Positions 2,067 to 61,487 of a stretch of DNA of 64,000 nucleotides are shown piece by piece. Each line of letters opens with the position of its first letter. The first letter of the stretch is position 1. Source of the DNA: a virus (Duplodnaviria > Caudoviricetes); the IMG/VR virus record IMGVR_UViG_3300037507_003370, positions 1 to 64,000 of that record, one strand, 5' to 3'. Made by a program: the position numbers and the translations under genes. Below the pieces are notes generated by a model. That model searched no databases and was not told where the DNA came from. It saw nothing but the letters and a program-made list of their open reading frames with translations.

Positions 2067-2072
2067 TCCCTA

Positions 2073-4912: not shown

Positions 4913-4972
4913 GAGTTTTCGCTGACTATACCCACTCAACCCAAATCCGTAGGATTACCTGATACAAGCCAA

Positions 4973-5044: not shown

Positions 5045-5051
5045 AAGATAT

Positions 5052-30090: not shown

Positions 30091-30108
30091 ATAGTTAGAG
30101 AAAATTAA

Positions 30109-33609: not shown

Positions 33610-33614
33610 TAATT

Positions 33615-34700
33615 ATGTTTAGTATAAGACAAAATCTCACTCAACGATCCTCAAGACTACCTAGAAAACGAAACCTTCTTGGTATGGATACTGTGTACAA
33701 GGCCCAACCATTTGTACAGGTTGTTGGTAAAAACGAGGATACTATTGGATTGAATTTTGTTAGTAAGGCACAACCGTTTGTTGCCGCATTTGATAATAGG
33801 CAAAAATCTCAATTAATATTAAGCGGAAATAACCATCCTGATGTACAATTATGGTTGAATAATATCTCATTAAATGGAGGCAGTGCTAGTTCTGGAACAA
33901 TTTCGGCATTAAATACCTTTTGTAATAGTATAGACAGTGCTGGGCTACGAAGTAAATTTTATAGACTTAATTTATTTTGTGGCAATAATTTAAATTCAGC
34001 TTTGGTTCCGCTATACGTTTCAACCAATTGGCTAAGTCCATCTTATGGATTTTCTGATTATGATAGAAATTTTAATTTTACAAATTCAGATTATTACGAA
34101 ACTGGATCTAGTGCTGGTTTAACTTCTAGCGGGGCTGATCCTACCCAGCAACTTGTTGGCACCAAGTATTTAGATACTGGATTTTTTCCTTCTATGGTTG
34201 GACCAGTTGGAAGTTTAATAGATAATTTACATATAGCAGCTACTGTTTCTACAACCGCAATATCTGCTGCTTTCCAAAGTATATTGTATGCTACTAATTC
34301 ATATGTTGATTTATGGTGGCTTGGTATTCAGTTACTTAGTGGATATGCTAATGTAAGAGCAAGCATAACACAGGCCTCATCAAACGGCATAAATGCTCAA
34401 TTGAGTCCGCTGTCAACAGGCTTAGTTTCTCCAGCAACTCATTTAATTAGTTCCAGGTTAACAACTACCGACTTTAGAGTTTATCAAGCTGGGTCACAAC
34501 TTGGAAGCACAAATACAACACCAATTACAGTCACCCTAACCCAACCAACTCCAACATTTTTGCTATTTAGACAAAGTGCTGGATATTATAGTAATCTGCG
34601 ATTAAGCGATTATTCGTTTGGAAAAGGATTAACAAGCTCAGAAGCTTCATCATATAGTAGCATACTACAAACTTTTAAAAATTCATTAACCAGGACTTGA
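33615..34700 (+). CDS. Virion protein, possible lectin/LamG-like
   Basis: Beta-rich, TKYLDTGF motif, in fibre cluster. Confidence 0.5.
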   Translation: MFSIRQNLTQRSSRLPRKRNLLGMDTVYKAQPFVQVVGKNEDTIGLNFVSKAQPFVAAFDNRQKSQLILSGNNHPDVQLWLNNISLNGGSASSGTISALNTFCNSIDSAGLRSKFYRLNLFCGNNLNSALVPLYVSTNWLSPSYGFSDYDRNFNFTNSDYYETGSSAGLTSSGADPTQQLVGTKYLDTGFFPSMVGPVGSLIDNLHIAATVSTTAISAAFQSILYATNSYVDLWWLGIQLLSGYANVRASITQASSNGINAQLSPLSTGLVSPATHLISSRLTTTDFRVYQAGSQLGSTNTTPITVTLTQPTPTFLLFRQSAGYYSNLRLSDYSFGKGLTSSEASSYSSILQTFKNSLTRT

Positions 34701-34701
34701 T

Positions 34702-37700: not shown

Positions 37701-37815
37701 AGTTTCTTTAAGTTTTACTCCTACCGAAGCTGGTGTTGTGGAACTATTAGCAGAGTGCTGGGGCGGATCAACATATACTGGATATATAGATGAATTAAGC
37801 ATAATACAAATATGA
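34702..37815 (+). CDS. Large receptor-binding/depolymerase-like protein
   Basis: Carbohydrate-binding-like modules plus C-terminal parallel beta-helix repeats (F.NC.F.NN). Confidence 0.6.
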   Translation: MPTFYLDYENGNDNYGGTSFSLLASGSDGAISSTTFSSATANFPNDNSIAPLKNICWHTNFWQNYGTYNGCRLLSLDYYVDEIINGPTGIDSYIYYLQEYPTVTNHLARTQASPFVTLSNSTQYTCSVYVRTAGRNKVILQLSDTARSARFNLSSGTVEATGASATAAISNVGGGWYRLSITATSSASASTDTFAFCLAEDNYTGSDAFGPSYMGDATKGIYFTAVQIEASASVTTYENPPGQILSIFNGSIYAYYHIIARVSSTSLTLSAISSGTALANTSARQYFIGGRIQTFTNGLTAVRTHSCDIIRVEASPSPTSIGNATWNGSGSAPTVAIASSTNATPISITTSATHGYSTGDTVFICDHQGHSAVNGTWEIVVTGPTTFTLTNSVGTASGGAGTVRKATNCVIRLASALTENIASHGNQGEVGGRTAWTATANNTTTTSSTTKQGSMSDSISIGAAFATGLVAYKSFSTKDLSGYQQLSFFIQQTAGAVATSGQLQLRLCSDAAGVTAVNTFNIPALGILNNWHVFTVDLGTNLGSSIQSVALYAASDLGAQTVLLSNIIACKASSSADSLSLTSLIGKNTTNESWYPIESIVGTRVIIDGRLSNNPTVSTVGNFSKGYYGTTETITTYKRETIKTPPQSAAANGVHIINDSASHFVPCLTIVGGYDRTNMSTQTGITFFDGQNGLGYGISSGSRASWSFKKLGFVRYDRVSVTNTGFTCFKDFYVIGCSNQFDSPTATQFCKFENVFCNNNFIGMNADFGFNVHKFTNCYFLSNNNSALRLSTYNNVVWNNCSFNNNGGIAILSAGGGTNNTWNNCSFHNNQGEAYRTQGVSSNDVFNNCTTSNISVYNAFFSFGGSIYLNNCLINESSEFGFYGGGNGRIYCTTHDNTSNNWFIYTDFGLIRPQTSVRYSNTGYAWSLAPTSDYRRDNYPLDFPISQIAVSANSVVTIKAWMRRTSTGLIFRLRVKGGQIAGVTNDVISYMTAAADTWEQVSLSFTPTEAGVVELLAECWGGSTYTGYIDELSIIQI

Positions 37816-40451: not shown

Positions 40452-41432
40452 ATGAAAGTTAAAATTTTAATTTATCTATATTATCCTTCCTTATGGGAAG
40501 AATACAAAGAATTATTGCTAAAAATAAAAGACTATATAGATATAGATTTATTATTATGTAATGATGACATAGAAAATAATAACGAATATATTGAGAAAGA
40601 TTGCTTAAATACTTTTAATGGGAACAGTATTGTTAGATATGTGGATAATAGAGGAGTTGATATAGGACCATTCCTATTACAAATGAAAGATCTAGATCCA
40701 AAAAAGCATAAATACTTTATTAAGTTACATTCTAAAAAATCTCTATGGGGTCGATATAAAAATGTAAATTGGAGGGAATTTTTAGTAAATGCATTAATAG
40801 GAAATAAAAATATTTTCCAAAATAACATTTCTAAAATGGATAATAACAATAAGATTGGAATGATAGGATCCAGAGCTCTTATCTTGAATAATGATAAAGA
40901 ATTTTATAATAAAAATATAATAGAATATTTAATGACTCATATTTTAAATTTATCAGATTATAATAATGATAATTGTAAATTCATTGGAGGAACAATGTTC
41001 ATGGCAAAATCAGAATTATTTAAAAAATATTTCCCCAATGAGATCTGCGACACTCTATACAATACTTTAAATTTTGGAATGATCTCAGATATAAAAGAAG
41101 GAACCATTCCCCATTCGCTAGAAAGAATATTTGGATATATTGTGGGCTTAGACAATCAGACAATAGAAGTATCTGATAGTGAAGATTTTATTCTCATAGA
41201 AAATAAAAACTTAAAAGAAATTTTTAAAATAATAATTACATACAATAACAATTGTTTTATATTTAATAAACCATTAATATGTGGTAAATTAATTAATAAT
41301 GTAAATGAAGATAATGATATATTTATCAATTGGCTTCATCTTTCTAAAAATGGTTCTATTAAGAAATATATAAAAAATAGCGATAACTTATATAATCAAA
41401 AAGGTATGAGCGCTATTATAAAGACTAATTGA
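40452..41432 (+). CDS. RgpF-like (rhamnan synthesis F) glycosyltransferase-related protein
   Basis: YLYYP..W, NRGVDIGPF, KLHSKKS...WR..L, FIGGTMF, HSLERIFG. Confidence 0.75.
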   Translation: MKVKILIYLYYPSLWEEYKELLLKIKDYIDIDLLLCNDDIENNNEYIEKDCLNTFNGNSIVRYVDNRGVDIGPFLLQMKDLDPKKHKYFIKLHSKKSLWGRYKNVNWREFLVNALIGNKNIFQNNISKMDNNNKIGMIGSRALILNNDKEFYNKNIIEYLMTHILNLSDYNNDNCKFIGGTMFMAKSELFKKYFPNEICDTLYNTLNFGMISDIKEGTIPHSLERIFGYIVGLDNQTIEVSDSEDFILIENKNLKEIFKIIITYNNNCFIFNKPLICGKLINNVNEDNDIFINWLHLSKNGSIKKYIKNSDNLYNQKGMSAIIKTN

Positions 41433-46234: not shown

Positions 46235-46561
46235 ATGAAAAATGATGATATCTATGCAAATGTAGAGAAAAAAATACAAACAACAATGATAGGAGCTTTG
46301 GCAAAGTTTGAAGAAAATTTTGGTTATTTATGGGGAATAGATAAAAATGAGGACTTAACAGAGAAAGAGTTATATTTTAGTAACTTGTGGGAAAAAACGA
46401 GAGTTGCTATATTAAATAACGGTAATAATCAGTTAAGAAATGTACTAGCAGACCTTGACAAGTTTTTTCAACAGTCTTCGCCAAAGACTAAGTATCACTA
46501 TAAATTTTATATGAATTCAAATCAGAGAAACAACGAAGGAGACTATAGAAATGAAAACTAA
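46235..46561 (+). CDS. Hypothetical protein
   Basis: GAGG RBS, coupled. Confidence 0.65.
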   Translation: MKNDDIYANVEKKIQTTMIGALAKFEENFGYLWGIDKNEDLTEKELYFSNLWEKTRVAILNNGNNQLRNVLADLDKFFQQSSPKTKYHYKFYMNSNQRNNEGDYRNEN

Positions 46562-47459
46562 AACTTTCAAGATTACTGTTAATGAGAAAGATACAGAGCT
46601 AATGGTTCGTACTCCATCTATTAATGATCAAAGAGAGGCTCAAAAGGTTTATAATCAGGCTTTTACAGACGCTATTAAATCTAAATGTGTTGTTAGAGCA
46701 AAGATGGATGATCTATTAGAAGATCAAGGTTTATGGAATCAAGATAAACAGGCTAAGTTTGCTGAATTACAGCAGGAACTTCTTGAATCTGAAAGGCAGT
46801 TAGCTCGCGGAGGTATTCCATTGAGGCAAGCTAGAGAAGCTGCTATTAAAATGAGACAATACAGAGATGAAATTAGATCTCTAATAGCCGTTAAAACTTC
46901 TTTAGACAATCATAGCGCCGAAGGACAAGCAGACAATGCTCGTTTCAACTACTTGGTATCTGCTTGTGTGGTGTATAATAATGATAATAAGGATCCATAT
47001 TTTAAGAATATGGAGGACTATTTGAATAGGGCCAATGAGGAAGCAGCAGTACTTGGTGCTCAAAATTTAGCCGCAATGTTGTATGGTTTGGATAATGATT
47101 ACGAAAATAATTTACCAGAAAATAAGTTTTTAAAGAAATATAAATTTATTGATGATAAATTAAGATTTATTGATAAAAAGGGTAGATTAACAGATAATGA
47201 GGGTAGGCTTGTTGATGAAAACGGTAGGTTTATTGATGAGAGTGGTAACTTTGTTGACAAATTTGGAAACAGAGTGGACAAAGAGGGCGAATACATTGTA
47301 GAAACTAAACCATTTTTAGATGATGACGGAAATCCAGTAGTCCTAGATGAAGATAAAAAAGATGAACCAAAACCAGAAACCGTTACAGCAGAATCAGAGC
47401 CAGCACCAGTGCCACCAAAGATTCTTCCAAATACAGAAACTTCTTCAGAGACAGAGTAG
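46551..47459 (+). CDS. Probable tail assembly chaperone
   Basis: Immediately upstream of TMP; helical, acidic C-terminus. Confidence 0.5.
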   Translation: MKTKTFKITVNEKDTELMVRTPSINDQREAQKVYNQAFTDAIKSKCVVRAKMDDLLEDQGLWNQDKQAKFAELQQELLESERQLARGGIPLRQAREAAIKMRQYRDEIRSLIAVKTSLDNHSAEGQADNARFNYLVSACVVYNNDNKDPYFKNMEDYLNRANEEAAVLGAQNLAAMLYGLDNDYENNLPENKFLKKYKFIDDKLRFIDKKGRLTDNEGRLVDENGRFIDESGNFVDKFGNRVDKEGEYIVETKPFLDDDGNPVVLDEDKKDEPKPETVTAESEPAPVPPKILPNTETSSETE

Positions 47460-47540: not shown

Positions 47541-50500
47541 ATGGCAAGAGCTTTCAATCTTACTGCTGAATTAAACCTAAGAGGACCTTCTAATCTTAGG
47601 CCAGTTATTAATGATATTAGAAGACAGCTGGGTAATATCACAGCGAATGTTAATGTTCGTATTGATAGAAATGCACAAAGATCAATTGATACTGCAAATG
47701 CTTCTTTGCAAAGACTAAATACTACTCTAGCGGCAACTGCAGCAAATGCCGTTAGAGCAAATGCTAATATTAATACTTTAGCTGGAACAATTAATAATTT
47801 ACGTAATGCTCTTAATGGAGCTGGCAATGGTTTAAGAGATCTAACAACTAATGTGGGAGCGGCTGCTAGAGATGTTACTGCTGCCGCAAGAGCCACAAGA
47901 GCAGCAACTTCTGAGATGGAAGAATTCGGAAGACAAGCAGGACTAGCTGTTAGAAGATTTGCTGCATTTAGTGTTTCAACAAGTGTTATTTATGGATTAG
48001 TAAATGCTGTTACTAGCGCAACCAGAGAGTTTATAGACTTTGATAGACAATTAGTAAGATTAACACAGATCACTGGAGAATCATATAAAAGTTTAGGAAG
48101 AATAACCGATACTATTACTGATTTATCAACCAATCTTGGAGTTAGTTCATCTAGCTTGATCACAATAGCAGATACTCTTGCTCAAGCAGGACTTAGTGCT
48201 GGTGAAACAGAAAAGGCATTAAGAGCATTGGCTTTAACTGCTTTGGCTCCGTCGTTTGATGATCTTAATGAAACAGTGGAAGGTTCTATTGCTTTGATGA
48301 GACAGTTCGGTATTAGCGCTGGACAACTTCAATCTGCTTTGGGTTCTGTTAATTCTGTGGCCGCAGCATTTGCAGTCGAATCTAGTGATATTATTACTGC
48401 TATTCAGCGTACTGGTGGTGTGTTCGCTAGTGCAAGTAAAGGAGTTAGCGAAGGAACAGATGCTCTTAACGAATTCATTGCTGTATTTACTAGCGTAAGA
48501 GCAACAACTCGTGAAAGTGCCGAGACTATTGCAACAGGATTGAGAACAATTTTTACTAGAATTCAAAGAGAAGGAACCATAGAAGCACTAAAAGAATACG
48601 GAGTTAATCTACAAGATGTTGAGGGTAAATTCGTCGGAGCATACAAAGCTGTTCAATTACTTAGCGAAGGATTAAATAGTCTAGATCCAAGAGATGTAAA
48701 GTTTTCTAGAATAGTAGAAGAACTTGGTGGCTTTAGACAAATTGGTAAGGTTCTACCTCTTATTCAACAGTTTGGAACAGCACAACAGGCACTTGCTGTT
48801 GCTCAAAGAGGATCTTCTAGTTTAACTCTAGATGCTGTTAAGGCCCAACAGTCATTAGCTGTACAATTTACTAAAACCAGAGAAAACTTTGTTGCATTAA
48901 TTAGAGAGATTGGTCAAAGTAATAGTTTTCAGAATTTAGTTAAGCTTGGACTCACACTAACTAATGTTTTAATAAGACTCGCAGATGTTGCTCAGCCGTT
49001 ACTACCAATAATAACAGCGATAGCTGCTGTTAGAGGAGGAAGAGCATTAACCAACTTTATTGGTGGATTTATAGGAGGATTAAGGCCTGGTGTTGGTGGC
49101 GATGCTGGAGGTGGCGGTGGCGGAGGTGGTGCTGGCGGCGGAGGTGGTGGACGAGGAGGAAGAGGCGGCGGTGGTGGAGGAGGTGGCGGTAGAGACGATT
49201 TCCGTTCATCCTTGCAAGATGTAACAACTTCTTTAGATAGTTTACAGGGATCCATTGACCCCTTAACAAATGCTATACAAGCATTATCTACTAATAGTAT
49301 AGCCGGATTAGTCTCACAGATATCCGTATTGAATACTTCAGTAGTAGACCTTAACGCAACAATTGTATCCAGGCCAGGAGGAACAGGTTTTGCTAGAGGC
49401 GGACTTGTCCCTGGACAAGGAAATAGAGATACTGTACCAGCAATGTTAACCCCTGGCGAATTTGTTATTAGAAAAAAGGCTGTTGAGACACTAGGGGCAG
49501 ATCAATTATATGGAATGAATAAATATAGTAATGGTGGTAGTATTAGATCTGGTAATAGGCTCAGAAGACAAAGATTTGCTAAGGGTGGAAAGGCAGCTAA
49601 ATTAGCAAGTATAGATGGTGACTTTAGAGCTGTTGACGGAGATACATTCGACGCAACTGTTACGCCAACAGGAGATCAGTTTACGGCAAGATTTAGAGTT
49701 GCCGAATTTGATACGTATGAAACAAGAGGTAAATCGAGTTTAGTTTCTACGGACAGAGCAAAAAAGATAATGTCTCTAAATCCAAAAGAACCCCCTTTAC
49801 AAGAGTCTTCCGGTAGATATAAAGTTCCAAAAAATTATAGAGTAACTTCTAGAAATGAAACAGCAGCAACAGCAGCAGCAGAAGCAACAAAGCAATTACA
49901 AAGTAAACTTGATCAATTCGTAGGAACAGCAGCAGCCGATAAAACCGTTCCTGGTGGAGGTGGTGTTGGTAGATACTTAGCTAAAACTGGATTTTCTATA
50001 GATGACGAGTACACAACAGGAAGAAAGTGGGACGAAGATGGGAATGAATTAAATATCGGAGGTATTGTCAAAAAATTTGCTCTTGGAGGAAAAGTACGAA
50101 GAAATGTTGGCTATATTGATTATGACGTTATCGCTAATGAAGCAAATAAAAGCATTGTAGAAAAAGGAATGTCAGAGCTTGGAGTTACTGGACCTAGACT
50201 TTATACTGATGCTTTAACAAAATTAGCAGTATCTTCGCGAAAAGCTGGAGATTTAGATAAATTAAAAGCAATTTACGGTGTTGCTGGCAGTGGCAAAACA
50301 ACATTAGCAAGAGGTCAAGGCACAGATAAAGGATCTTTAAGAGAAACAACTCGTTTTCCAATATTAGGTCCCGATGATATTAAAAAGGCAAATGAAATAT
50401 TAATATTAAGTAGTAGTGTTTCTAAGTCTAAAATGGAAGATTTTTTTACTGAAGTTGATAGAGTTTACGCACTTAGTTCTTCAACAAAATCTGAGCAAGA

Positions 50501-53500
50501 AAAAGTAATGGCTCAGAGATTAGGTAGAGATATCAGCGGAATAGGATTAGAAGGAAGAGCACCAGGAACAACAGGATCTGCATCATCAGATACCACTGTT
50601 GGAGAAGCATTATTATCTCAATTAGGTAAAAAATCAGTTGTGTTAGGAAGAGGCGATTCTGGAAATCTAAGAAGAAAACAAGGACAAGAACTTGTAGAAG
50701 TTATAAAAAAGAAATTAGCATTTACTTGGGGAGGTTTCGCACCAACAACAGCTGGTCATGAAAGTATCATGGATGCTGCTGCAGCAATGGGTTTTGCTCC
50801 AGAAGACTTTATTGCTCTTGTTGGAGCTAATGAAGGAATTAAGGCAGGAGATCCTAGTAGTTATAGAACAGCAGTATTTGATCAAGATTTTAGAGTATTG
50901 CTAGCCAAGGCCGGGTTCGGAGCCAAGGGAGCCACCGTTCTGCCAAAACCAAGAGATTTTGAAGTTCCTCAAGGTTTTGATATATCCGAAGGCACAGGAA
51001 GACGCAAAGTAATATTGCCACAAAAAGGAAGTAGAGCATTTGTAGCAGACAAAACTCCAGAACAAATGGCAAAATACAAAGATGCTGGTTATGATGTTAC
51101 TAATTTAGAAAGAACTGGCGGAATTAGCGGTACAATGGTTCGTGACTTAATTATGTCCGGTAAGATCGACCAATTGCAAGACGTTTTATCTCCTGGTGTT
51201 TACGATATTATATCAAAAAATTTACCAATATTACAGAATAGAGCTAATGTTTTACCTGAAATTATTAAACAAGTACAAGCTTCACAACAATCATCGGTTG
51301 ATGCTGTAGAAAAACAAATAACCGACATAGGAATCAAAAGAATTAATCGCAAACAAGCGGAGAGCGATCCGGAGTATGCTGCTAAAATTGCCTTATTAGA
51401 AGAGTTAAGAAAGAAAAAAACTAAATTACAAAGCGCTGGAGCTTTTGAGCCATACAGACTTTTAGATAAATTAGCATCAGATCAACCAGATAAATACGGA
51501 TTAAAGTTTGCTCAGGGAGGATTGATACAAAAATTTATGGCAGGAGAGATGGTTCAAAAACTTCCTGCCCCAGCGAGAAAAATAATTGATGCTCTTGGAG
51601 GGTTAGAACCAGCAGCAAAAATAGGTGGCGTTCGATCAACAGAAATATTAGAGATTTTAAAGAAAAAAGTTGTTAATCAATCACAAAAAACAATACAAGA
51701 TAAAATCTTAGCTCAATATGCAGAAGTTATTGGAGCAGAGCAGCAGGCTATGGATCAAGCAATGAAATTTGGCTTGGTTGGATTATTTGGAGAAACTAAA
51801 GTTGGAACTAATGATCAGGGTAGAACAATTTATGACCCTAAGTGGGACTATAGTAAACAATTTGGCCCTGAAGATATAGGAGGAAGAAACACCACAATAA
51901 TAGCTAGAGGATTAAGATCTCAATATGCAGAAGCTGTATATCAAATGCAAAGAGAGATATTTGGAGTTAATGAAAATTTTGCTAGAAATTTGGAAACAGC
52001 AGGAGGATTTGGAGCACAATCACTAGCAAATATTCAAGGGCCAGCTGTAAAAGCAGGACAGGCTGGCATAGAAGGGGCAATGATAGAGTTAGTTCTAGCA
52101 AGACTCGGAGCCCCATTAAGAGAAAATGCTCCTGCAAATAGACCAATAGATTATCCAGATGGACTAGGAGATGCGGCTAAGTTTTTTGGTATAGATCCGG
52201 ATATGCCAACAGAAGTTAAAAGAACTATTAATGGAGATAGTTTAGCGAGAACAAGAGAAGAAATTGAAAGATATTATAAAGAAGTTTTACAAGTTTTTGC
52301 TACTGGTGGAAAAGTTAAACTTTATCATGGATCTAATACAGGAATAAATGATAGTGTTTTAAATAGTTTTAAAGAAAAGGGAGCTCTTTCTAATATTGCT
52401 AAAGGCTATGGTCAAGGAGAAGGATTCTACTTATATACAGAAAAGAATAAAGCACAACAACAAGCTAATATGAGAGTTAATGGAGGAAGCAACTTTACTG
52501 TTGCTCAAGGCGATAGGTCAGGAAAGCCTATGGTATTAACTTTTAATGAACAATTAAGCCCTAAAGATTATGATTTAGATTATGAATTGCAAAAAGGACT
52601 AGTAGTACAATGGATGCATGATAATTACGATACTCTTAAAGATAAATATGCTCCTACTGAAAATCAAACCGGATTAAAAGGTAAGTTTGATAAAAATCCA
52701 GACGCTGGAATGATGTCGGTTGGAGTAAGTATTCAAGAAGGATCTCAAACATTAAAGTCCGAAGACGGAACAGAGTTTACCTTGCCTGGAGGATCAAGAA
52801 AATCTATTTATGCCGGAAGTGGGGGAGATGTTAGAGAAGGAGCTTTGCTTGGGCAGCTTATGTCTAGAATTCAATCTGGAGACCCCGAATTAGTAAATTC
52901 TTTTGAATCCAAACTTTTTGAAAAACCACTAGGATTAGCATTAAAGTATGTTGGATCATCACCGCTCAAGCCGAGTAATATTGAAACTTTTGCAGACGGT
53001 GGGTCGGTAGAAGGTCAAAAAAAGGAGAAAAACTTTGGAAAAATTGGAATAAAAAATAATGGGTCCGAAATTATAGCAGCATATTTGGGCACAAAAGATC
53101 GTAGTGGTATGGTTAGTGCAAAAAAAATGGCAGATAACTTATATACTGTCGGTTTGTCTAAAGCTAGTGAAGGATATGGTCCTAAGCTTTATGATATTGT
53201 TATGGAAGCGGCCACAGCCAATGGTGGTATGTTAGCTCCTGATAGAAATATTGTTAGCGATGCTGCAAAAGGTGTTTGGTCATATTATTTTAATAATAGA
53301 TCAGATGTAAGAAAAACACCACTAGATAGAAATCAATGGACACAGAACTCTGCCTTAATTGATCCTAAATTATTAGGAGATAAAAATACATGGCCACCAT
53401 ATTCTGATCCTGCTTGGATATTACAAAGTGGATATAGTAAAAATTCAGAGCTATTAAATAGCTCAGATATTGTCAATTTAAATGATGATAAATATAAGTC

Positions 53501-56500
53501 ATTTTTACAAAGTCAACAATTATCATTTTTTGCTCAAGGAGGATCAGTAGAAGATACTGTACCAGCATTATTAACTCCTGGTGAATTTGTAATTAATAAA
53601 AAAGCAGCTCAAAAAATTGGATATGGCAAACTTAAAAAATTAAATCATGCGGATAAAATACAGGGTTATAATAGAGGAGGAATTGTACATAGGTTCGCTG
53701 ATGGCGATGTTGTCCCTCCGTCTGGCCCAGGCTCAGGTGGAGATTCTGATCCAACAATAAGAGACTTAATGGAACGAATTAGACAGTTATCAGAAGTAAT
53801 AGACAGACTTTCTGCTACTGTAAGAGATTCGTCAGATACCAGAGAAAGAACACCCGCAGAAAGACCAGAAAGAAGACCAAGGACTAGAGAAGAAATTTTA
53901 GATAGATATGGATCTAGAGTAATTAATAATAGTTTTAGATCTATGGATAGATTTACTACTAGACTTAATGTACTTACTGGTGTTGTTGGAGTCGCAGCAA
54001 ATTTCTTAGCAGAAACTATAGGAGAAAAGTCTGCAGTTGGTGCGGTTGTACAGAGTTTTGCAAATAGCATCACCACAGCATCTGGAACAGTGTATAGTGC
54101 TGCTGGAGCAATAAAAGGAGCATATGAAGTATTACCAGAAGGTGTTCAAGAACTAGTTAGACAACGTATTGGATCTTTTACTGCTGGTGGTGGATTTGGT
54201 ACAACCGGAGTTCAAGCCGCAGGAGGAGCAGCAGCAGGATTAGCTATAGCCGCTGCGACTATTTATGCTGGAATAGAAGCATTTAAGGCATATAATGATG
54301 CTATTAGAAAACAAACAGAAGAAATAGCCAAAAATAATATGACTCAAGGTTTGGAAGAATTTGATAAAGCTTTAGAATTATATACAAAAAATACAACAGA
54401 TAATGCTTTTGCGCTCAAAGTTGCTGGCGAACAATTAGCCAAAGCAACTAGTGCAGCATTAACAATAGTAAATCTTAATAAAACTAATCCAGACAGAGGA
54501 TATGCTAGTATTATTGGAGAAAATATTGGGACCGTAGGAGGAGGTCTTGTTGGTGGTGCTGTTGGAGGAGCAACTGCTGGTGCAACAATTGGAACAGTAA
54601 TATTTCCTGGTGTTGGTACAGTAATAGGGGCCCTATTAGGAACTGCGATTGGTGCTACTGCGGGCTATGCGTCAGATCAAGCCGTAGCATATTTCTCTGG
54701 TAGAGGCGGACAAGAGCAGATTTCTCAAAGATCAGAAATAGCAAATAGATTTGGGACAGGGGCCTATACTCAATCATTATTTGATTCTAATACACAAACC
54801 AATCTTTCTAGATCCTTAGCTTCTGTTCAGGCAGCAGAAACTGCAGCAACTCTAACTCCAGTTAGACAAAGACAAGATCAATATTTTGAACAATTATTTA
54901 AATCGGGCGTTTCGGAATCTGAAATTCAATCAGCTCCAGAATGGCAACAACAAGCAGAATTAATAGCCAGATCCAATGCTGCTACAGAAGAACAACTTAG
55001 ACTTATAGATGCAGACCTATCTGTTTCTAAAGAACTAAGAGATGCAAAAAAACAAGAAATTATTGCATCCACAGCTAGTGCAGAATTAAGAAAACAAGCA
55101 GAACAAGTTAGAATACAAAGAGAACAAGAAAGAGCAGCAGATGAAAGTAAATCATATATGGTTAGCTTGGAAAGAAGCTTTCAGAATATGGAACAGGCAA
55201 TGGACTCGACCTCTTACTCTATTGATAAATTAAGATCGTCTGCAGAATTATCAGCCGCAGCTTTACAGGGTCAGGCAAAAATTGGGAAAGTTACATTAGA
55301 TGCTATAGATGTAATCCGTAATCCTAATGTTGCCAGTAGACAAGAAAAAACACAAGCATATGGCTTAGCTGGTTCATTAATGGGATCTCAAGGCAAAAGC
55401 GTTACCGGATTACTTGAGTATGGATCAAATATAGAGGGTAGAATTTTATCGTCAATTAATAATGCTTTGGCTGAAAACTCTAAAGGATCATCTGAAAAAA
55501 TAGGAGCAGCTGTTAATAGGTCTGTTGCGAACGAAATAGAAGGATTAGATATTGGAGATTCATTAAAACAAAAATTAGCATCGCAAACTTCTGCCGCAGT
55601 TTCCAAAATGAGGACAGATGGTGATGAAAAGATTGATTTTGATGACTTGGCAGATAAAGTACCAGGATTAGCAAAAGTTGTTGATGCAACTAAAAGAGCC
55701 CAAGAAATGGCTGTTAAAAGACTGGAGTTTTTCCAGCAGTCACTTAATGAATACTCAGAGTCTATAAATAGTCTTGCAGAACTACAATATAATATTGGAG
55801 AAAGATTAAGAAGAGTTAATAACTTAAGAATCAAGTCTGAGGAAGATCTATCAAGAGCACTTGGAAAATCAACCAGTTTTGAAGCTACCAAGTCTAATGT
55901 TAGATCAAATGTTCAGTCTTTAGCAGGAACAACTGACCCAAGACAAATATTCGAAAATTTAGCAAATTTAGAACAGCAAAGACAGCAGCAACAATCAAGA
56001 GTAACTTCTGCTGCTAACAGAGGAGCAGTTCAAGAATATGTAGTAATGACTAATCAATTAAAGACTACTACATTACAAATGAGAGAGAATCACGCTGCTT
56101 TAAAAGAATTAGCTGAAAGTAGCGATGTTGCATCAGCAGCATTGAATAAAATAAATGATATACAACAACAGAATGCTGCTAGAACTAATATCTTAGAAAG
56201 ATATGTAACATCAACACCACAAGAACAAAATCAACTCTCTTCTGCTTTTGAAAGACTACAAAATAATATGGATGGCGCCACAAATAGCATGTGGGATTCT
56301 GTAAATGTTCAGAAAGCATATAGAGACTCACTAACAAGCGGTTCTACCCAAGCAGAAGCAATGAATAAGGCCCAAGAGGCTGCTGCACAAGATCGTAAAG
56401 AGACCTTAGATGCATTTAATATGATAGCTCCATTACTAGGAGATCAACAAAATGAATTAAAGGCTAATGTATTAGAAAGTATGATGAGAGAATCTGGTGT

Positions 56501-59500
56501 TCAAATGTCTCCATTATTTGAAAAGGCTCTTCAAGGATTAAGAAATCCAGAAAGAGATCCTCAAATGGATGCTGCTATTAAAGAATATCAAGAAGCCAAT
56601 AGGCTACAACAAGAAGCCAATGTATATCTTGCTATGTTAGATGGAAAAGTAGCACAAGACATGGCAACAAAATCAGACGAATTATTAAGAACATCATTAG
56701 CAACAGTAACTCAAAAATTCGAATTAGCAGAAAGTAGTGATGTAAAAAATAAAATTAATAGTATAGACAGTAGACTTAGAGATGGAATTAAAGTATTTCC
56801 TCAAGGTAATATTGGTGGTGGTTCTTCTGATGATGTAACCACAGCAGCTAAAGGTGGATACATAACATATAAGGCTGTTGGAGGCTCAATATTTAAGCCC
56901 AAAGGTACCGATACTGTGCCTGCCATGTTAACTCCTGGAGAATTTGTTGTTAACAGATCAGCAACTCAAAAGCATGGTTCATTATTAGAGTCTATTAATA
57001 GTGGACAATTTGCCAAAGGAGGAAAAGTAACATATCGAGCAGCTGGTGGTATTGTTGGAGACGTAAAATCACCGCATCTTAAAGATTTTAGCGATCCTTA
57101 TGAGGACTTGAGAGGACAACCATTAACAGGATCTTTCTTCTCTAAGCTAGGATCTAGTGATGATGTTGCTAAAAATTTATTGGATTTAGAACAAGGCTTT
57201 GGAGCTTTACAAGGATACCAAGCATCAGCCTATCCTACTTTTAATAACTCTGGTTCAACAGCAGACGGTCTTGATAAACAGTCAACAACAAAATGGATTA
57301 AAGATAATAGATCTCCAACCGGAGGTAAACTAGGTTGGTTTCCTGATCTAACTGTTTTTCACGGATCCGCAGGCAATTTAGGCTATTTACCAATATTCTG
57401 GGGTGCAAATGCTATTGCTGGTGCAACTGGAGCCACCGTTACAGCCAATCGTAAATCATTACAAAAACAGATGGTTACCAAGGATCTATTAGATTTAGGA
57501 AATCCAGATATTTTTGATGTTTTAAATGACAGATCAGCAAGCGGAAAAGGACCTAGAGCAAGAACAACTCTTTTATCAGAAGACCAAGCTAAATTACAGA
57601 AAGAAAAACTAACATCGATTTTTGATCAGGTTGACAAAGGATTGTCTGATGTTAAACAAAAAGAAATTAATTTATCAAAAGACGGCGGCGCCATAAATTC
57701 TGCAGCAAATATTGGTCAATATGGCGCAAGTTTTAGAAAATATGGACTCATATTAGGATCTTCAATACCAGATAAATATATGGGTCTTAGTTTTAATAAA
57801 CCAAACACTTCTATAGACCAATCTTTAGTAGGAGGAAATTTATCTGAGCCATCTTTTAGCGTTACTAAATATGGCTATGCGACATCTTCTACATCTCCAT
57901 TGGCAAATTCAACTAATACAGCAGTAATATCTGGGGGTATTCAAACAATACCAACAGAAGATCAGCTTAAGTCTTTTACCGATAAATATAAATCAGTTAT
58001 ACAAGTAGAAGAATGGAGAGCTTATATAGATAAACTAGATAAAGATAAGTCAAGAAGCACTACTCCTATAGAAGAACAAACTAACGCTAGAAATAAAGCC
58101 TTAAGAAAATTAATTAATAATCAAATAACACATATCCAACTCAAAGAAGAAGATTTGAGCGATGAATTTAAAAAGATGGCTGGCATAGATGGAGATTTTG
58201 AAAAATTAGATGTATATTCAGAAGCTTTTAAAGGTAGATGGCCTAATACAGAGTCTATGAAAACTAATTTTGGAATTAAAGATGAAGACCTTAAAAAATA
58301 TTGGCAAACTGGAGCAAATGATAAATTATTTACATTACAATATAGCAAAAAATTAAGAAATCTTTTAACCGGAGCAGAATTTGATCAACAGTATACTAAA
58401 GGATTGCCTTGGTCTTGGGGAGAAAATAGCATATTCACAGCAGAAACTATGGAAGCAGTTAAAAAAGAAATGGCATTATCTTCAGGGGCCTCTTCTTTTA
58501 AAGTCATTCCTAAAGTATTTAGTAAATCATATACAGACACAAGAGATCCTAATCAATATACAGCAAAAATCAAATTCCCATATGACTCATTATCATCTCT
58601 TTTATTTGATAAAGATAGTATGGACTATACCGCTCAATCACTTACTGCATTAGTTCCATGGTGGGAAAATCAACAAAAAATAGATCCTTTTAGTATTAAT
58701 CCATTTGTCGGCTTGGCTCAGCCTAACGCTGTGATTCCAGCGTATCAGGACGAAAAAAGTATGGAAAAATTTGTTAAATATTGGGTTGAAAAAGAAATTT
58801 TCAACAAACCATCCATTTATCTGCCTCTTTCGCCTATAAAACTACCTACAGCACTAGATAAATTTGTTGGAAGTGTTAATAATACAACACAATTCGATAG
58901 AGAAGTAACAGATAGTGAAGGAGGTAAGAATTTTGAACAAGGTAATTATGTTCCAGAGAATGCGGAAGTTGCTGATATATCTAATGCTTTATTTAAAAAA
59001 TATGAATATATATACGCAAAAAGATCTCAAGATACAAGCGCTAATAATGAATCAAAATTAAGGGAAAACTTATTACAATATAATTTAGCATCTAGTCTTG
59101 GTAAATCACTCTTAAAGAAAGATGGATTAAAATTACCATTATGGGATCCTGATCAAGCTTTTGTAACAGCAGATCCAGTTTGGCAAGCAGTTAAAGACAC
59201 GGCTCCAGACCTTGGAGTAGATGGATATAGGAACGCTGCCGAATGGAAAAGAAGCTATATATTAGCTGCCGCCGGAACAATAGCAGATCCGCCAGATAAG
59301 ATCAAAGCAGACGAGGACATTTTTCCTGCTCAAAATTATATAGCTTGGATTAGAGCAAAAACCGTAGAAGCCTATTCTGCAAATGAAGAGAGTCAGGATA
59401 AATATAAACAATCAGGAGGAGTAAATATATCTTCTTTGGGTAAGTTAGTTTCTGCTTGGAGATTTATGGAAGAGTCTAGAACAGCTGGAGGAAGCGCAAC

Positions 59501-61487
59501 ATCATATAAGGACGATAATAGTCCTAAAGATAATCCTTTTTCTAAACGCCTATATAATAGATATGAAAAAGATCTAAAGAAATTTACTAAAAAAGTTACT
59601 TTACAAGCACCAGACAGAAACAAAAAAGGAGATAAGCCATGGGAAAGAGACTATGATGACACTGGAGCTGGATTAGAAAGAACATATTGGGACAATGCTA
59701 AATTAGCTTCTGATGCCGGATTTGTTCAAACTGTTTTATCAGAACAAGAAGGTAAAATAGATGATAGAAGAGCAAGAACTCTTTTAAGTTATCGTAGAGG
59801 ATATAAAAAAGATTCGGTACAACCAGAAGAACAAGCAATTTTAGATGCTTATGGTACAATGGTAGACAAAAAAGGAAGAGAAGACATAGCATTTGATCTT
59901 ACAACAGGAGGAGCTAACGAAGCTAAAGCGCCAACAACTTTTACTGGTCCTGGCGGCGTTTATGAACAAATGATGGATCAATATCAAGTTATGCAAATTG
60001 GCAGACGTTCTATGCTAAGAGCATTAATAGAAGATAGAGCAAGATCCAATTTTGATGCTCCAAATTTTGAAAATTCTGGATACGAAGAGTGGTGGGAAGA
60101 TATGTCAAATGATCTCGAATATATTGAAGAATATTTATCTGCTAGAGATTATATGTTATTGAAAGCAACCTCTTCTGCAGAATTGTATAATCCTGCTGTT
60201 GGAGCAGCAGTACAAGCGAAAATAAGTCAAGTGTCTGGAGGTTTACCAGACTTTTTATTAAATGCTATGCCAGGACTAACAGGAGGAGCAGACTATAATT
60301 CGTTATATGGAACAGTCGTAGACAACATGGCTCTTTCGGCGCAAGAGTTTGTAGATTCTATAACTGGCCCAAGACCAGTTGATCCGAGTAACCCAACACT
60401 TGGAACACTAACAGATGATCAAGCTCAGAGAGTTAATGAGCTTAGAAAATTAATAGCTACAGAATTTGGCCAAACAAGAGATATAAAACCAAGCGTTTAT
60501 ACTCAAGAAATTTTTGATATGTATAAAACATACATTGAAGACAATTATAATAATGCTAATAAAGCATATAGCAAATTAAATGAAGGAACTATGTTGCAAC
60601 CTCCCAATGAGATTTGGGATCGTAGCGATTTAGTTGTTCTAGCAGACAAAGCTTCGGCTAATAGTCCAAATACTTTTAGAGCATTTTATTTAGCTTCTGT
60701 TGGTGCTGGTAAAAACTTAGCAGAACTTAAAAAAGACGAGATGCAGGGATTTGGAGGACTATTACCTAGTGCTCAAAAGGGTGCCGAAGCATTAGGAATG
60801 TCCTCTGCCGAACCAGATAAAAAGAGCCAACCTCAAACCAGAGCTTCTGGAGGATTGATATATAATCAAAGTTACAAGCCGAATAATATTGATTGGTCAG
60901 CAAAAGGCACAGACACTGTTCCTGCAATGTTAACACCAGGAGAATTTGTAATTAACAAAGATTCTAGTCAAAGATACATGCCTATTTTAGAAGCTATTAA
61001 TCAAGGAAACTATACTCAGGGCAATATTGTTCAGTATGCTAGCAGAGGAGGAACAATAAGACCAATATACAGAAACATGGGTGGTATTGTAGGAGGAAAC
61101 CAACAGCAAGGTGTATTAAATTCATATATTGGATTGGATGAAAAATCTATAGCAGCTTTAAGGGACTTTACGGCCAAATTTGATCAATTTGCTAAACAGC
61201 TTTTGGAACTTAGACTACCAACTATTGGAATTGATAGCACTAGCTTGGGAGCATTAACTACATTTAGTAATAGGTTTGATGAATTTAGCAAGAGTTTGCT
61301 CAAATTGAATATACCGCCGGTGATTACGATAAACGCAAAACATGATGTTAACGTCAATATTAATGGAGCTAGTGTGTTTAACAATCTCAATGCCTATGTT
61401 AGCGATATAGTAAAGAGCGAAATTGATAAAGCATTTAGTCAATTAGCTAAGGTTTCCGAAAATGCTATTAATTTGTATGGGTCATAA
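47541..61487 (+). CDS. Giant tape measure protein with embedded enzyme-like domains (4648 aa)
   Basis: N-terminal TMP core (FDRQLVRL...ALAPSF..NSVAAAFAVESSDI..), glycine zipper at aa ~2330-2375, four DTVPA(M/L)LTPGEFV modules. Confidence 0.88.
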   Translation: MARAFNLTAELNLRGPSNLRPVINDIRRQLGNITANVNVRIDRNAQRSIDTANASLQRLNTTLAATAANAVRANANINTLAGTINNLRNALNGAGNGLRDLTTNVGAAARDVTAAARATRAATSEMEEFGRQAGLAVRRFAAFSVSTSVIYGLVNAVTSATREFIDFDRQLVRLTQITGESYKSLGRITDTITDLSTNLGVSSSSLITIADTLAQAGLSAGETEKALRALALTALAPSFDDLNETVEGSIALMRQFGISAGQLQSALGSVNSVAAAFAVESSDIITAIQRTGGVFASASKGVSEGTDALNEFIAVFTSVRATTRESAETIATGLRTIFTRIQREGTIEALKEYGVNLQDVEGKFVGAYKAVQLLSEGLNSLDPRDVKFSRIVEELGGFRQIGKVLPLIQQFGTAQQALAVAQRGSSSLTLDAVKAQQSLAVQFTKTRENFVALIREIGQSNSFQNLVKLGLTLTNVLIRLADVAQPLLPIITAIAAVRGGRALTNFIGGFIGGLRPGVGGDAGGGGGGGGAGGGGGGRGGRGGGGGGGGGRDDFRSSLQDVTTSLDSLQGSIDPLTNAIQALSTNSIAGLVSQISVLNTSVVDLNATIVSRPGGTGFARGGLVPGQGNRDTVPAMLTPGEFVIRKKAVETLGADQLYGMNKYSNGGSIRSGNRLRRQRFAKGGKAAKLASIDGDFRAVDGDTFDATVTPTGDQFTARFRVAEFDTYETRGKSSLVSTDRAKKIMSLNPKEPPLQESSGRYKVPKNYRVTSRNETAATAAAEATKQLQSKLDQFVGTAAADKTVPGGGGVGRYLAKTGFSIDDEYTTGRKWDEDGNELNIGGIVKKFALGGKVRRNVGYIDYDVIANEANKSIVEKGMSELGVTGPRLYTDALTKLAVSSRKAGDLDKLKAIYGVAGSGKTTLARGQGTDKGSLRETTRFPILGPDDIKKANEILILSSSVSKSKMEDFFTEVDRVYALSSSTKSEQEKVMAQRLGRDISGIGLEGRAPGTTGSASSDTTVGEALLSQLGKKSVVLGRGDSGNLRRKQGQELVEVIKKKLAFTWGGFAPTTAGHESIMDAAAAMGFAPEDFIALVGANEGIKAGDPSSYRTAVFDQDFRVLLAKAGFGAKGATVLPKPRDFEVPQGFDISEGTGRRKVILPQKGSRAFVADKTPEQMAKYKDAGYDVTNLERTGGISGTMVRDLIMSGKIDQLQDVLSPGVYDIISKNLPILQNRANVLPEIIKQVQASQQSSVDAVEKQITDIGIKRINRKQAESDPEYAAKIALLEELRKKKTKLQSAGAFEPYRLLDKLASDQPDKYGLKFAQGGLIQKFMAGEMVQKLPAPARKIIDALGGLEPAAKIGGVRSTEILEILKKKVVNQSQKTIQDKILAQYAEVIGAEQQAMDQAMKFGLVGLFGETKVGTNDQGRTIYDPKWDYSKQFGPEDIGGRNTTIIARGLRSQYAEAVYQMQREIFGVNENFARNLETAGGFGAQSLANIQGPAVKAGQAGIEGAMIELVLARLGAPLRENAPANRPIDYPDGLGDAAKFFGIDPDMPTEVKRTINGDSLARTREEIERYYKEVLQVFATGGKVKLYHGSNTGINDSVLNSFKEKGALSNIAKGYGQGEGFYLYTEKNKAQQQANMRVNGGSNFTVAQGDRSGKPMVLTFNEQLSPKDYDLDYELQKGLVVQWMHDNYDTLKDKYAPTENQTGLKGKFDKNPDAGMMSVGVSIQEGSQTLKSEDGTEFTLPGGSRKSIYAGSGGDVREGALLGQLMSRIQSGDPELVNSFESKLFEKPLGLALKYVGSSPLKPSNIETFADGGSVEGQKKEKNFGKIGIKNNGSEIIAAYLGTKDRSGMVSAKKMADNLYTVGLSKASEGYGPKLYDIVMEAATANGGMLAPDRNIVSDAAKGVWSYYFNNRSDVRKTPLDRNQWTQNSALIDPKLLGDKNTWPPYSDPAWILQSGYSKNSELLNSSDIVNLNDDKYKSFLQSQQLSFFAQGGSVEDTVPALLTPGEFVINKKAAQKIGYGKLKKLNHADKIQGYNRGGIVHRFADGDVVPPSGPGSGGDSDPTIRDLMERIRQLSEVIDRLSATVRDSSDTRERTPAERPERRPRTREEILDRYGSRVINNSFRSMDRFTTRLNVLTGVVGVAANFLAETIGEKSAVGAVVQSFANSITTASGTVYSAAGAIKGAYEVLPEGVQELVRQRIGSFTAGGGFGTTGVQAAGGAAAGLAIAAATIYAGIEAFKAYNDAIRKQTEEIAKNNMTQGLEEFDKALELYTKNTTDNAFALKVAGEQLAKATSAALTIVNLNKTNPDRGYASIIGENIGTVGGGLVGGAVGGATAGATIGTVIFPGVGTVIGALLGTAIGATAGYASDQAVAYFSGRGGQEQISQRSEIANRFGTGAYTQSLFDSNTQTNLSRSLASVQAAETAATLTPVRQRQDQYFEQLFKSGVSESEIQSAPEWQQQAELIARSNAATEEQLRLIDADLSVSKELRDAKKQEIIASTASAELRKQAEQVRIQREQERAADESKSYMVSLERSFQNMEQAMDSTSYSIDKLRSSAELSAAALQGQAKIGKVTLDAIDVIRNPNVASRQEKTQAYGLAGSLMGSQGKSVTGLLEYGSNIEGRILSSINNALAENSKGSSEKIGAAVNRSVANEIEGLDIGDSLKQKLASQTSAAVSKMRTDGDEKIDFDDLADKVPGLAKVVDATKRAQEMAVKRLEFFQQSLNEYSESINSLAELQYNIGERLRRVNNLRIKSEEDLSRALGKSTSFEATKSNVRSNVQSLAGTTDPRQIFENLANLEQQRQQQQSRVTSAANRGAVQEYVVMTNQLKTTTLQMRENHAALKELAESSDVASAALNKINDIQQQNAARTNILERYVTSTPQEQNQLSSAFERLQNNMDGATNSMWDSVNVQKAYRDSLTSGSTQAEAMNKAQEAAAQDRKETLDAFNMIAPLLGDQQNELKANVLESMMRESGVQMSPLFEKALQGLRNPERDPQMDAAIKEYQEANRLQQEANVYLAMLDGKVAQDMATKSDELLRTSLATVTQKFELAESSDVKNKINSIDSRLRDGIKVFPQGNIGGGSSDDVTTAAKGGYITYKAVGGSIFKPKGTDTVPAMLTPGEFVVNRSATQKHGSLLESINSGQFAKGGKVTYRAAGGIVGDVKSPHLKDFSDPYEDLRGQPLTGSFFSKLGSSDDVAKNLLDLEQGFGALQGYQASAYPTFNNSGSTADGLDKQSTTKWIKDNRSPTGGKLGWFPDLTVFHGSAGNLGYLPIFWGANAIAGATGATVTANRKSLQKQMVTKDLLDLGNPDIFDVLNDRSASGKGPRARTTLLSEDQAKLQKEKLTSIFDQVDKGLSDVKQKEINLSKDGGAINSAANIGQYGASFRKYGLILGSSIPDKYMGLSFNKPNTSIDQSLVGGNLSEPSFSVTKYGYATSSTSPLANSTNTAVISGGIQTIPTEDQLKSFTDKYKSVIQVEEWRAYIDKLDKDKSRSTTPIEEQTNARNKALRKLINNQITHIQLKEEDLSDEFKKMAGIDGDFEKLDVYSEAFKGRWPNTESMKTNFGIKDEDLKKYWQTGANDKLFTLQYSKKLRNLLTGAEFDQQYTKGLPWSWGENSIFTAETMEAVKKEMALSSGASSFKVIPKVFSKSYTDTRDPNQYTAKIKFPYDSLSSLLFDKDSMDYTAQSLTALVPWWENQQKIDPFSINPFVGLAQPNAVIPAYQDEKSMEKFVKYWVEKEIFNKPSIYLPLSPIKLPTALDKFVGSVNNTTQFDREVTDSEGGKNFEQGNYVPENAEVADISNALFKKYEYIYAKRSQDTSANNESKLRENLLQYNLASSLGKSLLKKDGLKLPLWDPDQAFVTADPVWQAVKDTAPDLGVDGYRNAAEWKRSYILAAAGTIADPPDKIKADEDIFPAQNYIAWIRAKTVEAYSANEESQDKYKQSGGVNISSLGKLVSAWRFMEESRTAGGSATSYKDDNSPKDNPFSKRLYNRYEKDLKKFTKKVTLQAPDRNKKGDKPWERDYDDTGAGLERTYWDNAKLASDAGFVQTVLSEQEGKIDDRRARTLLSYRRGYKKDSVQPEEQAILDAYGTMVDKKGREDIAFDLTTGGANEAKAPTTFTGPGGVYEQMMDQYQVMQIGRRSMLRALIEDRARSNFDAPNFENSGYEEWWEDMSNDLEYIEEYLSARDYMLLKATSSAELYNPAVGAAVQAKISQVSGGLPDFLLNAMPGLTGGADYNSLYGTVVDNMALSAQEFVDSITGPRPVDPSNPTLGTLTDDQAQRVNELRKLIATEFGQTRDIKPSVYTQEIFDMYKTYIEDNYNNANKAYSKLNEGTMLQPPNEIWDRSDLVVLADKASANSPNTFRAFYLASVGAGKNLAELKKDEMQGFGGLLPSAQKGAEALGMSSAEPDKKSQPQTRASGGLIYNQSYKPNNIDWSAKGTDTVPAMLTPGEFVINKDSSQRYMPILEAINQGNYTQGNIVQYASRGGTIRPIYRNMGGIVGGNQQQGVLNSYIGLDEKSIAALRDFTAKFDQFAKQLLELRLPTIGIDSTSLGALTTFSNRFDEFSKSLLKLNIPPVITINAKHDVNVNINGASVFNNLNAYVSDIVKSEIDKAFSQLAKVSENAINLYGS

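Follow-up and report, generated by a model that had tools for sequence, protein, structure and literature searches.

Exchangeable cassettes bounded by a conserved Gly-Gly joint in a family of giant phage tape measure proteins

Does a phage tape measure protein (TMP) carry ready-made enzymes inside its length, and are the Gly-Gly motifs between them the places where it is cut? The question is raised by a 64,000-nucleotide stretch of virus DNA (Duplodnaviria; Caudoviricetes), positions 1 to 64,000 of the IMG/VR record IMGVR_UViG_3300037507_003370, here called the window. Its plus-strand part 47541-61487 is a single open reading frame (ORF) of 4648 amino acids. An earlier note, made from the letters of the window alone, took positions 49389-61085 (residues 617-4515) for a TMP built like a polyprotein. 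In that account, (F/Y)xxGG motifs bracket every cargo domain and are cut to release it. Sequence comparison firmly shows a family of giant, cargo-bearing TMPs. Their cassettes are fenced by a peptide selected as protein, and the fencing module is homologous to a processed region of lambda gpH. That the joints are themselves cut is a more tentative reading.

The assignment as a TMP was confirmed. Pfam PhageMin_Tail (PF10145) matches residues 190-384 (E 9.8e-24; 84.8 bits against a cut-off of 33.2), and at least five PHROG tape-measure families match residues 1-580. By these profiles, the ORF is a phage tail TMP of the TP901/PhageMin_Tail type. It has membrane-type hydrophobic segments at 476-495, 2227-2248 and 2346-2372. 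A protein search returned 329 relatives. The 120 listed have 3615-7872 amino acids; nearly all carry PF10145, and their contigs reach 241 kb. The family comparisons below concern 119 giant homologues of 4000-7900 amino acids.

All 19 motifs listed earlier occur at their residues: FARGG 617, YSNGG 662, FAKGG 679, LNIGG 837, FALGG 846, FAQGG 1323, FMAGE 1332, FATGG 1586, FADGG 1817, FAQGG 1997, YNRGG 2043, FADGD 2052, AAKGG 3102, KAVGG 3111, FAKGG 3157, RAAGG 3166, RASGG 4434, ASRGG 4500 and RNMGG 4511. We compared the motif counts with 2000 composition-preserving shuffles of the protein. FAxGG occurs 8 times against 0.14 expected, [FY]xxGG 12 times against 2.6, and DTVPAxLTPGEFV 4 times against 0. 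None of the shuffles reached the observed counts. The motifs are also kept out of the helical tape segments, as had been claimed. Residues 1-616 and 2057-3100 contain no [FYLWMIV][ASN]xGG, and the only [FY]xxGG there is FTAGG 2213, in a hydrophobic Gly-rich stretch.

Across the 119 homologues, the consensus at Gly-Gly pairs outside poly-glycine is [F/Y/L]-[A/S/N]-x-G-G-x-[V/I]. The form xxGG given in the earlier note captures real motifs, but conservation extends past the Gly-Gly: valine is the second residue after it in 58% of 1908 strict family motifs. The doublets described for this protein are real family-wide. Successive Gly-Gly pairs stand 9 residues apart in 529 cases, while most other spacings have about 30-60 (189 at 8 and 111 at 11).

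A larger unit holds 999 of the 1908 motifs; the remainder are bare joints. This 85-residue module consists, in order, of a GG motif, YAxxG, GTDTVPAMLTPGEFVVN, a helix with a near-invariant terminal Asn, YxxGGxV and YxxGG. The TMP has four copies (GG...DTVPAMLTPGEFV...helix...GG). Each junction between scaffold and cargo bay is a module, and most cassette-cassette junctions are a bare [F/Y/L]-A-x-G-G-x-V. The four copies are just 68-78% identical in DNA, with differences mostly at synonymous positions, and the 15 nucleotides of FAxGG use different codons at each copy. The joint motif is therefore maintained by selection on the protein.

The module is widespread. When 1.84 billion representatives were searched with its profile, 24,057 clusters matched at E <= 1e-3; most are very long proteins in which it recurs 3-12 times. 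It corresponds to no Pfam family, and among PHROGs it lies only inside phrog_35029 ('unknown function'). Gordonia phage TMPs carry it, as does the gp29-position protein of cyanomyovirus S-SM2. Against the sequences of solved structures, the profile matched the mycobacteriophage Douge TMP twice (E 1.4e-8). In a further 126 module-bearing proteins, motif density was 2.96 per 1000 amino acids against 0.54 after shuffling. AF2 of the module alone gave a single helix (pLDDT 60), and a trimer prediction with three copies scored 0.01, with fold pLDDT below 40, which is evidence neither way. The module has never been seen in structures because only the last 30-40 TMP residues are ordered in lambda and Douge (PMC10721106, PMC13033339). 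Nothing pointed to the DTVPAMLTPGEFV module being itself a protease, an option raised in the earlier note, and by AF2 it does not fold by itself.

If homologues exchange domains, their boundaries should show where. Coverage by homologues changes stepwise along the TMP, and 9 of the 16 steps fall within 25 residues of a motif; steps stand at TMP 617, 679, 846, 1323, 1586, 1817, 1997, 2052 and 3166. A mean-distance statistic for breakpoints was uninformative (owing to the termini and to module 4, which has no strict regex match), and a family-wide test was used instead. In the all-against-all comparison, a motif stands within 10 residues of 33% of recurrent homology breakpoints (n=17,437), compared with 5% of random points. 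At 30 residues the figures are 55% and 13%, and the distribution peaks at the motif itself. The coincidence of homologue domain boundaries with the motifs, which the earlier note had set as its own test, was thus observed.

Cutting the 119 proteins at the motifs gave 1189 segments in 289 clusters. The conserved elements are the N-terminal tape, a kinase-transferase block (110 proteins), the central tape (108 proteins) and the C-terminal end. All other segments vary in presence, order and copy number (e.g., 7-4 versus 4-7, or 0-0 duplications). These alignments show that motif-bounded cassettes are gained, lost, duplicated, reordered and swapped across the family.

All features of the TMP lie on the plus strand. 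The N-terminal tape-measure core, residues 1-504 (47541..49052), ends in the hydrophobic segment 476-495 and is present in 117-118 of the 119 homologues. A poly-glycine tract of repeat family D1 follows (505-550; 49053..49190). Module 1 covers residues 606-690 (49356..49610) with FARGG, DTVPAMLTPGEFV, a helix, YSNGG and FAKGG; profile matches relate it to the Douge TMP and lambda gpH. Cargo bay A then extends from 691 to 1996. It is divided by bare joints at 837/846, 1323/1332, 1586 and 1817.

The first cassette of bay A, residues 691-841 (49611..50063), is SNase-like. Its alignment (A1) has an invariant D-G-D, R, D, E and R, and a profile search reached staphylococcal thermonuclease chains at E 0.002, which is marginal by score. 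It is found in about 38 homologues. At the joint doublet LNIGG/FALGG (837-850; 50049..50090), homologue coverage rises from 40 to 99. The next block, residues 851-1322 (50091..51506), appears from profile matches and invariant catalytic residues to be a P-loop NTPase with a HIGH-motif nucleotidyltransferase. The Walker A motif (GVAGSGKTT) and the HIGH-type transferase residues (GGFAPTTAGH, ISGTMVR) are invariant in alignment A6. A PDB profile search gave MJ0951 (E 1.2e-4) and NMN adenylyltransferase (E 2.2e-3), and there is a weak Pfam HIGH_NTase1_ass match. By coverage, the block is near-universal in the family, being in about 100 of the 119 homologues. No joint separates its two domains; FTWGG 1061 belongs to the nucleotide-binding motif of the transferase itself.

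Coverage falls from 100 to 65 at the doublet FAQGG/FMAGE (1323-1336; 51507..51548). Cassette F, residues 1337-1585 (51549..52295), has no Pfam match and no lead in the language-model atlas. It is followed by the joint FATGG (1586-1590; 52296..52310), where the coverage step falls exactly at residue 1590; the first strand of the domain that follows begins with residue 1591.

That next domain, residues 1591-1816 (52311..52988), is modelled with an ADP-ribosyltransferase (ART) fold. The AF2 model has pLDDT 79.7. ART-fold proteins dominate among the VIA-align matches listed (Z 8.3-4.4): Tpt1/KptA, PARP16/13/10, Arr, diphtheria toxin, PltA, pertussis S1 and DarT. The best match has Z 8.3 and a root mean square deviation of 3.2 over 83 residues. 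A Foldseek search of the model against the PDB was weak, with nothing at E <= 0.001. The atlas search gave a lead to ART-PolyVal. In 25 homologues, H1596 (LYHGS), F1629 (GFY) and E1682/E1789 are invariant, and Y1630 is nearly so; they are candidate residues for a catalytic triad of the H-Y-E type. The cassette is closed by the joint FADGG (1817-1821; 52989..53003), whose F, A, G and G are invariant in alignment A2.

Cassette H, residues 1822-1996 (53004..53528), is GNAT-like as a lead only. The atlas feature search placed it at 0.91-0.95 to phage clusters, some of them with Acetyltransf_1. Cassettes G and H gave no match in PDB profile searches, H had no Pfam match either, and the search for its stand-alone homologues found just one fragment. 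Elsewhere in the family, one other cassette passes the Pfam threshold for ADPrib_exo_Tox; it is the sole significant match among the 20 commonest cassettes, and the other 19 have none. The claim of enzyme-like cargo was upheld by the ART fold (structure prediction and fold search) and by the SNase-like and HIGH-type domains (profiles and invariant residues).

Module 2 (1981-2065; 53481..53735) carries FAQGG, DTVPALLTPGEFV, YNRGG and FADGD and leads into the central tape, residues 2066-3099 (53736..56837). This has two hydrophobic segments and then a long motif-free stretch; residues 2400-3170 are in about 109 homologues. Module 3 (3100-3184; 56838..57092) has AAKGG, KAVGG, DTVPAMLTPGEFV, FAKGG and RAAGG. 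The variable cargo bay B, residues 3185-4433 (57093..60839; about 1250 amino acids), is found in 1-11 homologues. It has no Pfam match. Coverage steps lie near 3270, 3470 and 3720 but there is no strict internal motif. The earlier statement that motifs bracket every cargo domain is therefore overstated, in view of bay B and block 851-1322. Module 4 (4434-4518; 60840..61094), with RASGG, DTVPAMLTPGEFV, ASRGG and RNMGG, is the positional counterpart of lambda gpH 733-790. The C-terminal end, residues 4519-4648 (61095..61487), is in about 75 homologues and would serve at the tail tip by analogy (PMC10721106, PMC13033339).

The relation to lambda brings in the question of cutting. Against the PDB, the module profile matched lambda gpH (8iyk_H) at residues 753-789 (E 0.016), and a four-sequence search gave a domain E of 1.2e-6. 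Read directly, gpH 733-790 contains FATGG (733), 16 residues, GEFV, a helix, YATGG (778) and YV. From these matches, the module is homologous to a part of gpH in or beside the region cut during tail assembly. In lambda tail maturation, gpH is processed to gpH* and gpHC (Hendrix & Casjens 1974; Tsui & Hendrix 1983, as reviewed in PMC12617516). The cut site and the enzyme were both stated to be unknown in the 2025 Ur-lambda structure paper (PMC12617516). We calculated that a cut after FATGG (residue 737) gives 80.1 and 12.2 kDa, and a cut at 715 gives 78.1 and 14.2 kDa. The fragment masses are compatible with a cut at 715-745; FATGG is within the uncertainty of the gel estimate and is not singled out.

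In gpH, the module stands after a hydrophobic Gly-rich stretch and before the tip-bound C-terminal helix, like module 4 here. Module 1 is also similar, as it follows the hydrophobic segment 476-495 and the poly-glycine tract. On the other hand, gpH has one module and no cargo, and lambda encodes gpK, for which no counterpart was found in the window or the two contigs searched with it. The lambda gpK has NlpC/P60 and a JAB-type segment with an HSH...S..D motif. In the lambda record (L007 1128-1876), the match of gpK to the Prok-JAB model is confined to the C-terminal half of the model (63-112 of 114). It keeps HSH...S..D, and the frame upstream of its annotated start is closed by a stop. JAB/JAMM enzymes are known to cut after Gly-Gly, and gpK is for this reason a reasonable candidate for the enzyme that cuts gpH.

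Phage T5 offers a second comparison. Cleavage of its TMP, pb2, after R1127 detaches an enzymatic C-terminal fragment from the tape (Linares et al. 2023, PMC10038345). Among mapped TMP cuts, this one alone resembles the joint motif. The site reads FVPR|AEGGMMYPGVSYQMGEHGTEVV. The sequence R|AEGGMM fits a loose joint, [Phi/R/K]-A-x-G-G-x-Phi, and is followed by a GE-box. There are just two AxGG in the 1219 residues of pb2, and the cut R1127|A1128 opens one of them. The T5 cut differs in being single and in lying before the Ala of AEGG, four residues upstream of the presumed post-Gly-Gly position. By this analogy, T5 suggests a scissile bond before Ala and not after Gly-Gly.

Other systems resemble the TMP in part. 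In the TMP of Gordonia phage Yeezy (L001, residues about 1250-1385 of the part examined), an SLT transglycosylase domain ends exactly where a GG...PGEEV module begins. Bracketing of cargo by the module is therefore not confined to the giant family. With three modules and two bare joints, the Yeezy TMP lends itself to experiments on the joint. TMPs with embedded cell-wall hydrolases (TM4, T5 and P1 Sit, as cited from Piuri & Hatfull 2006 in PMC9024508) likewise hold enzymatic domains. They have one or two peptidoglycan hydrolases acting in the envelope, whereas the present TMP has six or more cassettes, whose folds are of kinds usual for cytoplasmic effectors. There is also a likeness in content with the polyvalent proteins of phages and conjugative elements (Iyer, Burroughs, Anand, de Souza, Aravind 2017, PMC5512222), which are also giant and have ART, GNAT, nuclease and nucleotide-enzyme domains in highly shuffled architectures. 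In that paper's proposal, they enter the host with DNA and are divided there into units by cleavage. However, they are delivered from the head or by plasmids, typically with a zincin-like MPTase, and TMPs are not mentioned (PMC5512222). Here, the carrier is a TMP, no peptidase was found, and a specific motif fences the cassettes. By analogy with known TMP ejection (PMC12617516, PMC10038345), the TMP would be delivered into the host with DNA.

The joints can also be set beside known cleavage sites. Adenain, African swine fever virus pS273R and Ulp1-like enzymes are viral proteases specific for Gly-Gly. The joints share with their sites a Gly-Gly at the presumed P2-P1 and a hydrophobic residue upstream. 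They differ from the adenain site (M/I/L)XGG in having the hydrophobic residue at P5, Ala at P4 and a strong conservation at P2'.

Taken together, the comparisons show a TMP with a fixed scaffold, made of the N-terminal tape, the central tape with its two membrane-type segments and the C-terminal tip end, interrupted by two cargo bays. The bays hold exchangeable cassettes, with the joints as units of cassette gain, loss, duplication and reordering. Beyond this, we propose, tentatively, that the tail lumen stores the protein and that cleavage takes place in or next to the joints, either when the tail is completed or once the protein has been ejected. Such cleavage would release the cargo (nuclease, ADP-ribosyltransferase, acetyltransferase-like and nucleotide enzymes) from the membrane-inserting tape, and the cargo would act in the host. 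That the joints are processing sites, cut at or next to them, is in our judgement a little short of an even chance. It is suggested because the module lies in or beside the gpH cut region and a look-alike stands at the T5 pb2 cut. In its favour, the joint has more sequence specificity than a hinge would need. Lambda, and perhaps T5, give a precedent, and effectors would need freeing from a membrane-inserting tape. A wider form of this proposal is rather unlikely. In it, the Phi-A-x-G-G-x-V joint and the GG...PGEFV...GG module would be a universal, unnamed element for the maturation cleavage of TMPs, cut by a conserved tail-assembly or host activity. A large phage family would have multiplied it, so that the TMP became a magazine whose exchangeable enzymes (ART, GNAT, nuclease and nucleotide enzymes), directed against the host or its defences, are released into the cell before the DNA.

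Several observations weigh against cutting at the joints. In lambda, FATGG is linked to the cut by fragment mass only. The T5 pb2 was not detected by the module profile and is alike at pattern level only. The earlier note had called for identification of the protease, and the search gave none. No adenain/Ulp-type or other peptidase was found in the TMP or the 20 commonest family cassettes, where the embedded processing peptidase of polyvalent proteins (MPTase or similar) is missing too. Pfam and PHROGs show no protease family among the window's ORFs, nor over the next 9 kb, which the near-identical contig L004 supplies; the genome would be roughly 200 kb long, and a protease gene may lie in another part of it. 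With lambda gpK as query, the six-frame ORFs of the window, L004 and the relative L005 gave no homologue. No motif divides bay B or the kinase-transferase pair. Likewise, valine two residues after the Gly-Gly is as strongly conserved as the residues before it, and the 9-residue doublets look like beta-turn or hairpin repeats, so a structural joint fits equally well.

This structural alternative deserves a serious place, although we would not expect it to hold. The joints would be uncut: a G-G turn between two hydrophobic residues (Phi-A-x-G-G-x-V, every 9 residues) would make short hairpins or hinges. With these, every cassette could fold, unfold and find its place in the narrow tail lumen separately, and could pass along the tail at ejection. 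The cargo would remain attached to the tape in the membrane and do its work where the phage enters, and the modules would dock or pack on tube, chaperone or tip proteins. The symmetric conservation around the Gly-Gly and the sharp periodicity speak for it, as does the lack of a protease in the TMP, the 20 cassettes and the neighbouring ORFs. In the ART model, the motif abuts the first and the last strand. The last strand packs directly on FADGG, leaving little or no free linker, at moderate confidence (mean pLDDT 77 in the last full 10-residue block). The Douge structure paper reports no cleavage, and the Douge TMP has two internal modules (PMC13033339); in most phages, TMPs may just never have been checked for cleavage (PMC12617516). 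Conversely, the isolated module has no confident AF2 fold beyond its one helix, and a flexible hinge would not need the conserved Phe-Ala. The lambda gpH, which has the module, is cut in that region (PMC12617516). Enzymes for varied cytoplasmic targets would be badly placed on a trimeric membrane channel, following the argument made for polyvalent proteins (PMC5512222). The joints and modules might instead be shared DNA patches for cassette swapping by homologous recombination, with no role in the protein. The pile-up of homology breakpoints at the motifs and the wide variation of cassette order and number would suit this, and the 85-residue modules could give two genomes a similar DNA stretch of about 250 bp. 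We consider it improbable. The divergence of the module copies at synonymous positions and the varied FAxGG codons indicate selection on the peptide, and the same peptide module occurs in lambda, actinophages and cyanomyoviruses with unrelated DNA. Finally, a Gly-rich protein with 82 GG dipeptides and a poly-glycine tract might repeat the motif as a by-product of low-complexity composition. This is hardly credible: the excess over shuffles, here and in the 126 further proteins, and the non-random placement at borders refute it. What probability these explanations leave belongs to others that we have not listed.

Part of this picture was already known, namely hydrolase-bearing TMPs, TMP cleavage in lambda and T5, and polyvalent proteins. 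In the literature searched, we found no TMP with ART or polyvalent-type cytoplasmic effector cargo. Nor did we find there a defined joint motif or a link of its module to the gpH cleavage region. Effectors of contractile injection systems related to TMPs (PMC13277306, PMC11126660) have a different architecture. If the joints are cut, they offer a precise candidate for the lambda gpH cut (FATGG 733-737 or YATGG 778-782), a question open since 1974. There would also be a second route for ready-made enzymes into the cell, through the tail lumen with the TMP as carrier, besides head-packaged polyvalent and internal proteins. The 289 clusters among 119 proteins amount to hundreds of unannotated cassettes, likely rich in host-takeover and counter-defence activities. 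A short peptide that fences independently folding cassettes, in a protein made for ejection through a tail tube, could, if the proposal is true, serve as a natural blueprint when foreign proteins are to be loaded into the tails of phages or into tail-like injection systems.

The setting of the TMP is that of a phage. The window holds a large terminase (17565-19601), fibre-like giants (26983-37815) and tRNA genes, while most genes around the TMP match no Pfam or PHROG family. Upstream of the TMP are two overlapping ORFs, 46235-46561 and 46551-47459, of no recognisable family. Downstream, a 2468-residue ORF begins at window position 61493, extends past the end of the window (L004 16956-24362) and has no Pfam or PHROG match. 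The relative L005 has a 2493-residue counterpart after its TMP, and the protein is presumably a fused tail-tip or hub protein. The source is a large uncultured phage. One of the relatives was labelled as from a Sphingobacteriia genome bin, so its host may belong to the Bacteroidota.

Contig L004 comes from another sample and is near-identical (6 mismatches in 19,463 nucleotides); it reaches 9 kb past the window. At TMP codon 1028, the window has TTA (Leu; 50622-50624) and L004 has TGA (6085-6087), which splits the TMP into 1027 and 3615 amino acids. The TGA could be a sequencing error, a defective variant or a read-through codon. We discarded this split as evidence on the joints, since the stop is inside the P-loop domain and away from any joint. 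The apparent split of the TMP in L005 was also discarded, being a scaffold gap of N's.

Three proteins of 1035-1166 amino acids (26983-30090, 30109-33609 and 34702-37815) lie between the head and tail genes. Two have BppL_N repeats and one has a weak beta-helix match. Probably these are fibres or receptor-binding proteins whose position, upstream of the tail tube genes, is unusual. Genes at 40452-41432, 15869-16855 and 13561-13974 encode, in that order, an RgpF-like rhamnan-synthesis glycosyltransferase (E 1.5e-18), a nucleotide-sugar epimerase (PHROG E 9e-73) and an S-adenosylmethionine decarboxylase-like protein. Auxiliary functions in surface polysaccharides or polyamines are possible for them. 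On the minus strand, at 22-96, 99-172, 3561-3638 and 4972-5045, are tRNA-Asp, tRNA-Arg(tct), tRNA-Glu and one odd tRNA-like call, whose anticodon loop was read with two bases. This tRNA region (1-13 kb) has 43% GC and small minus-strand ORFs, and its GC content and skew are unlike those of the structural module.

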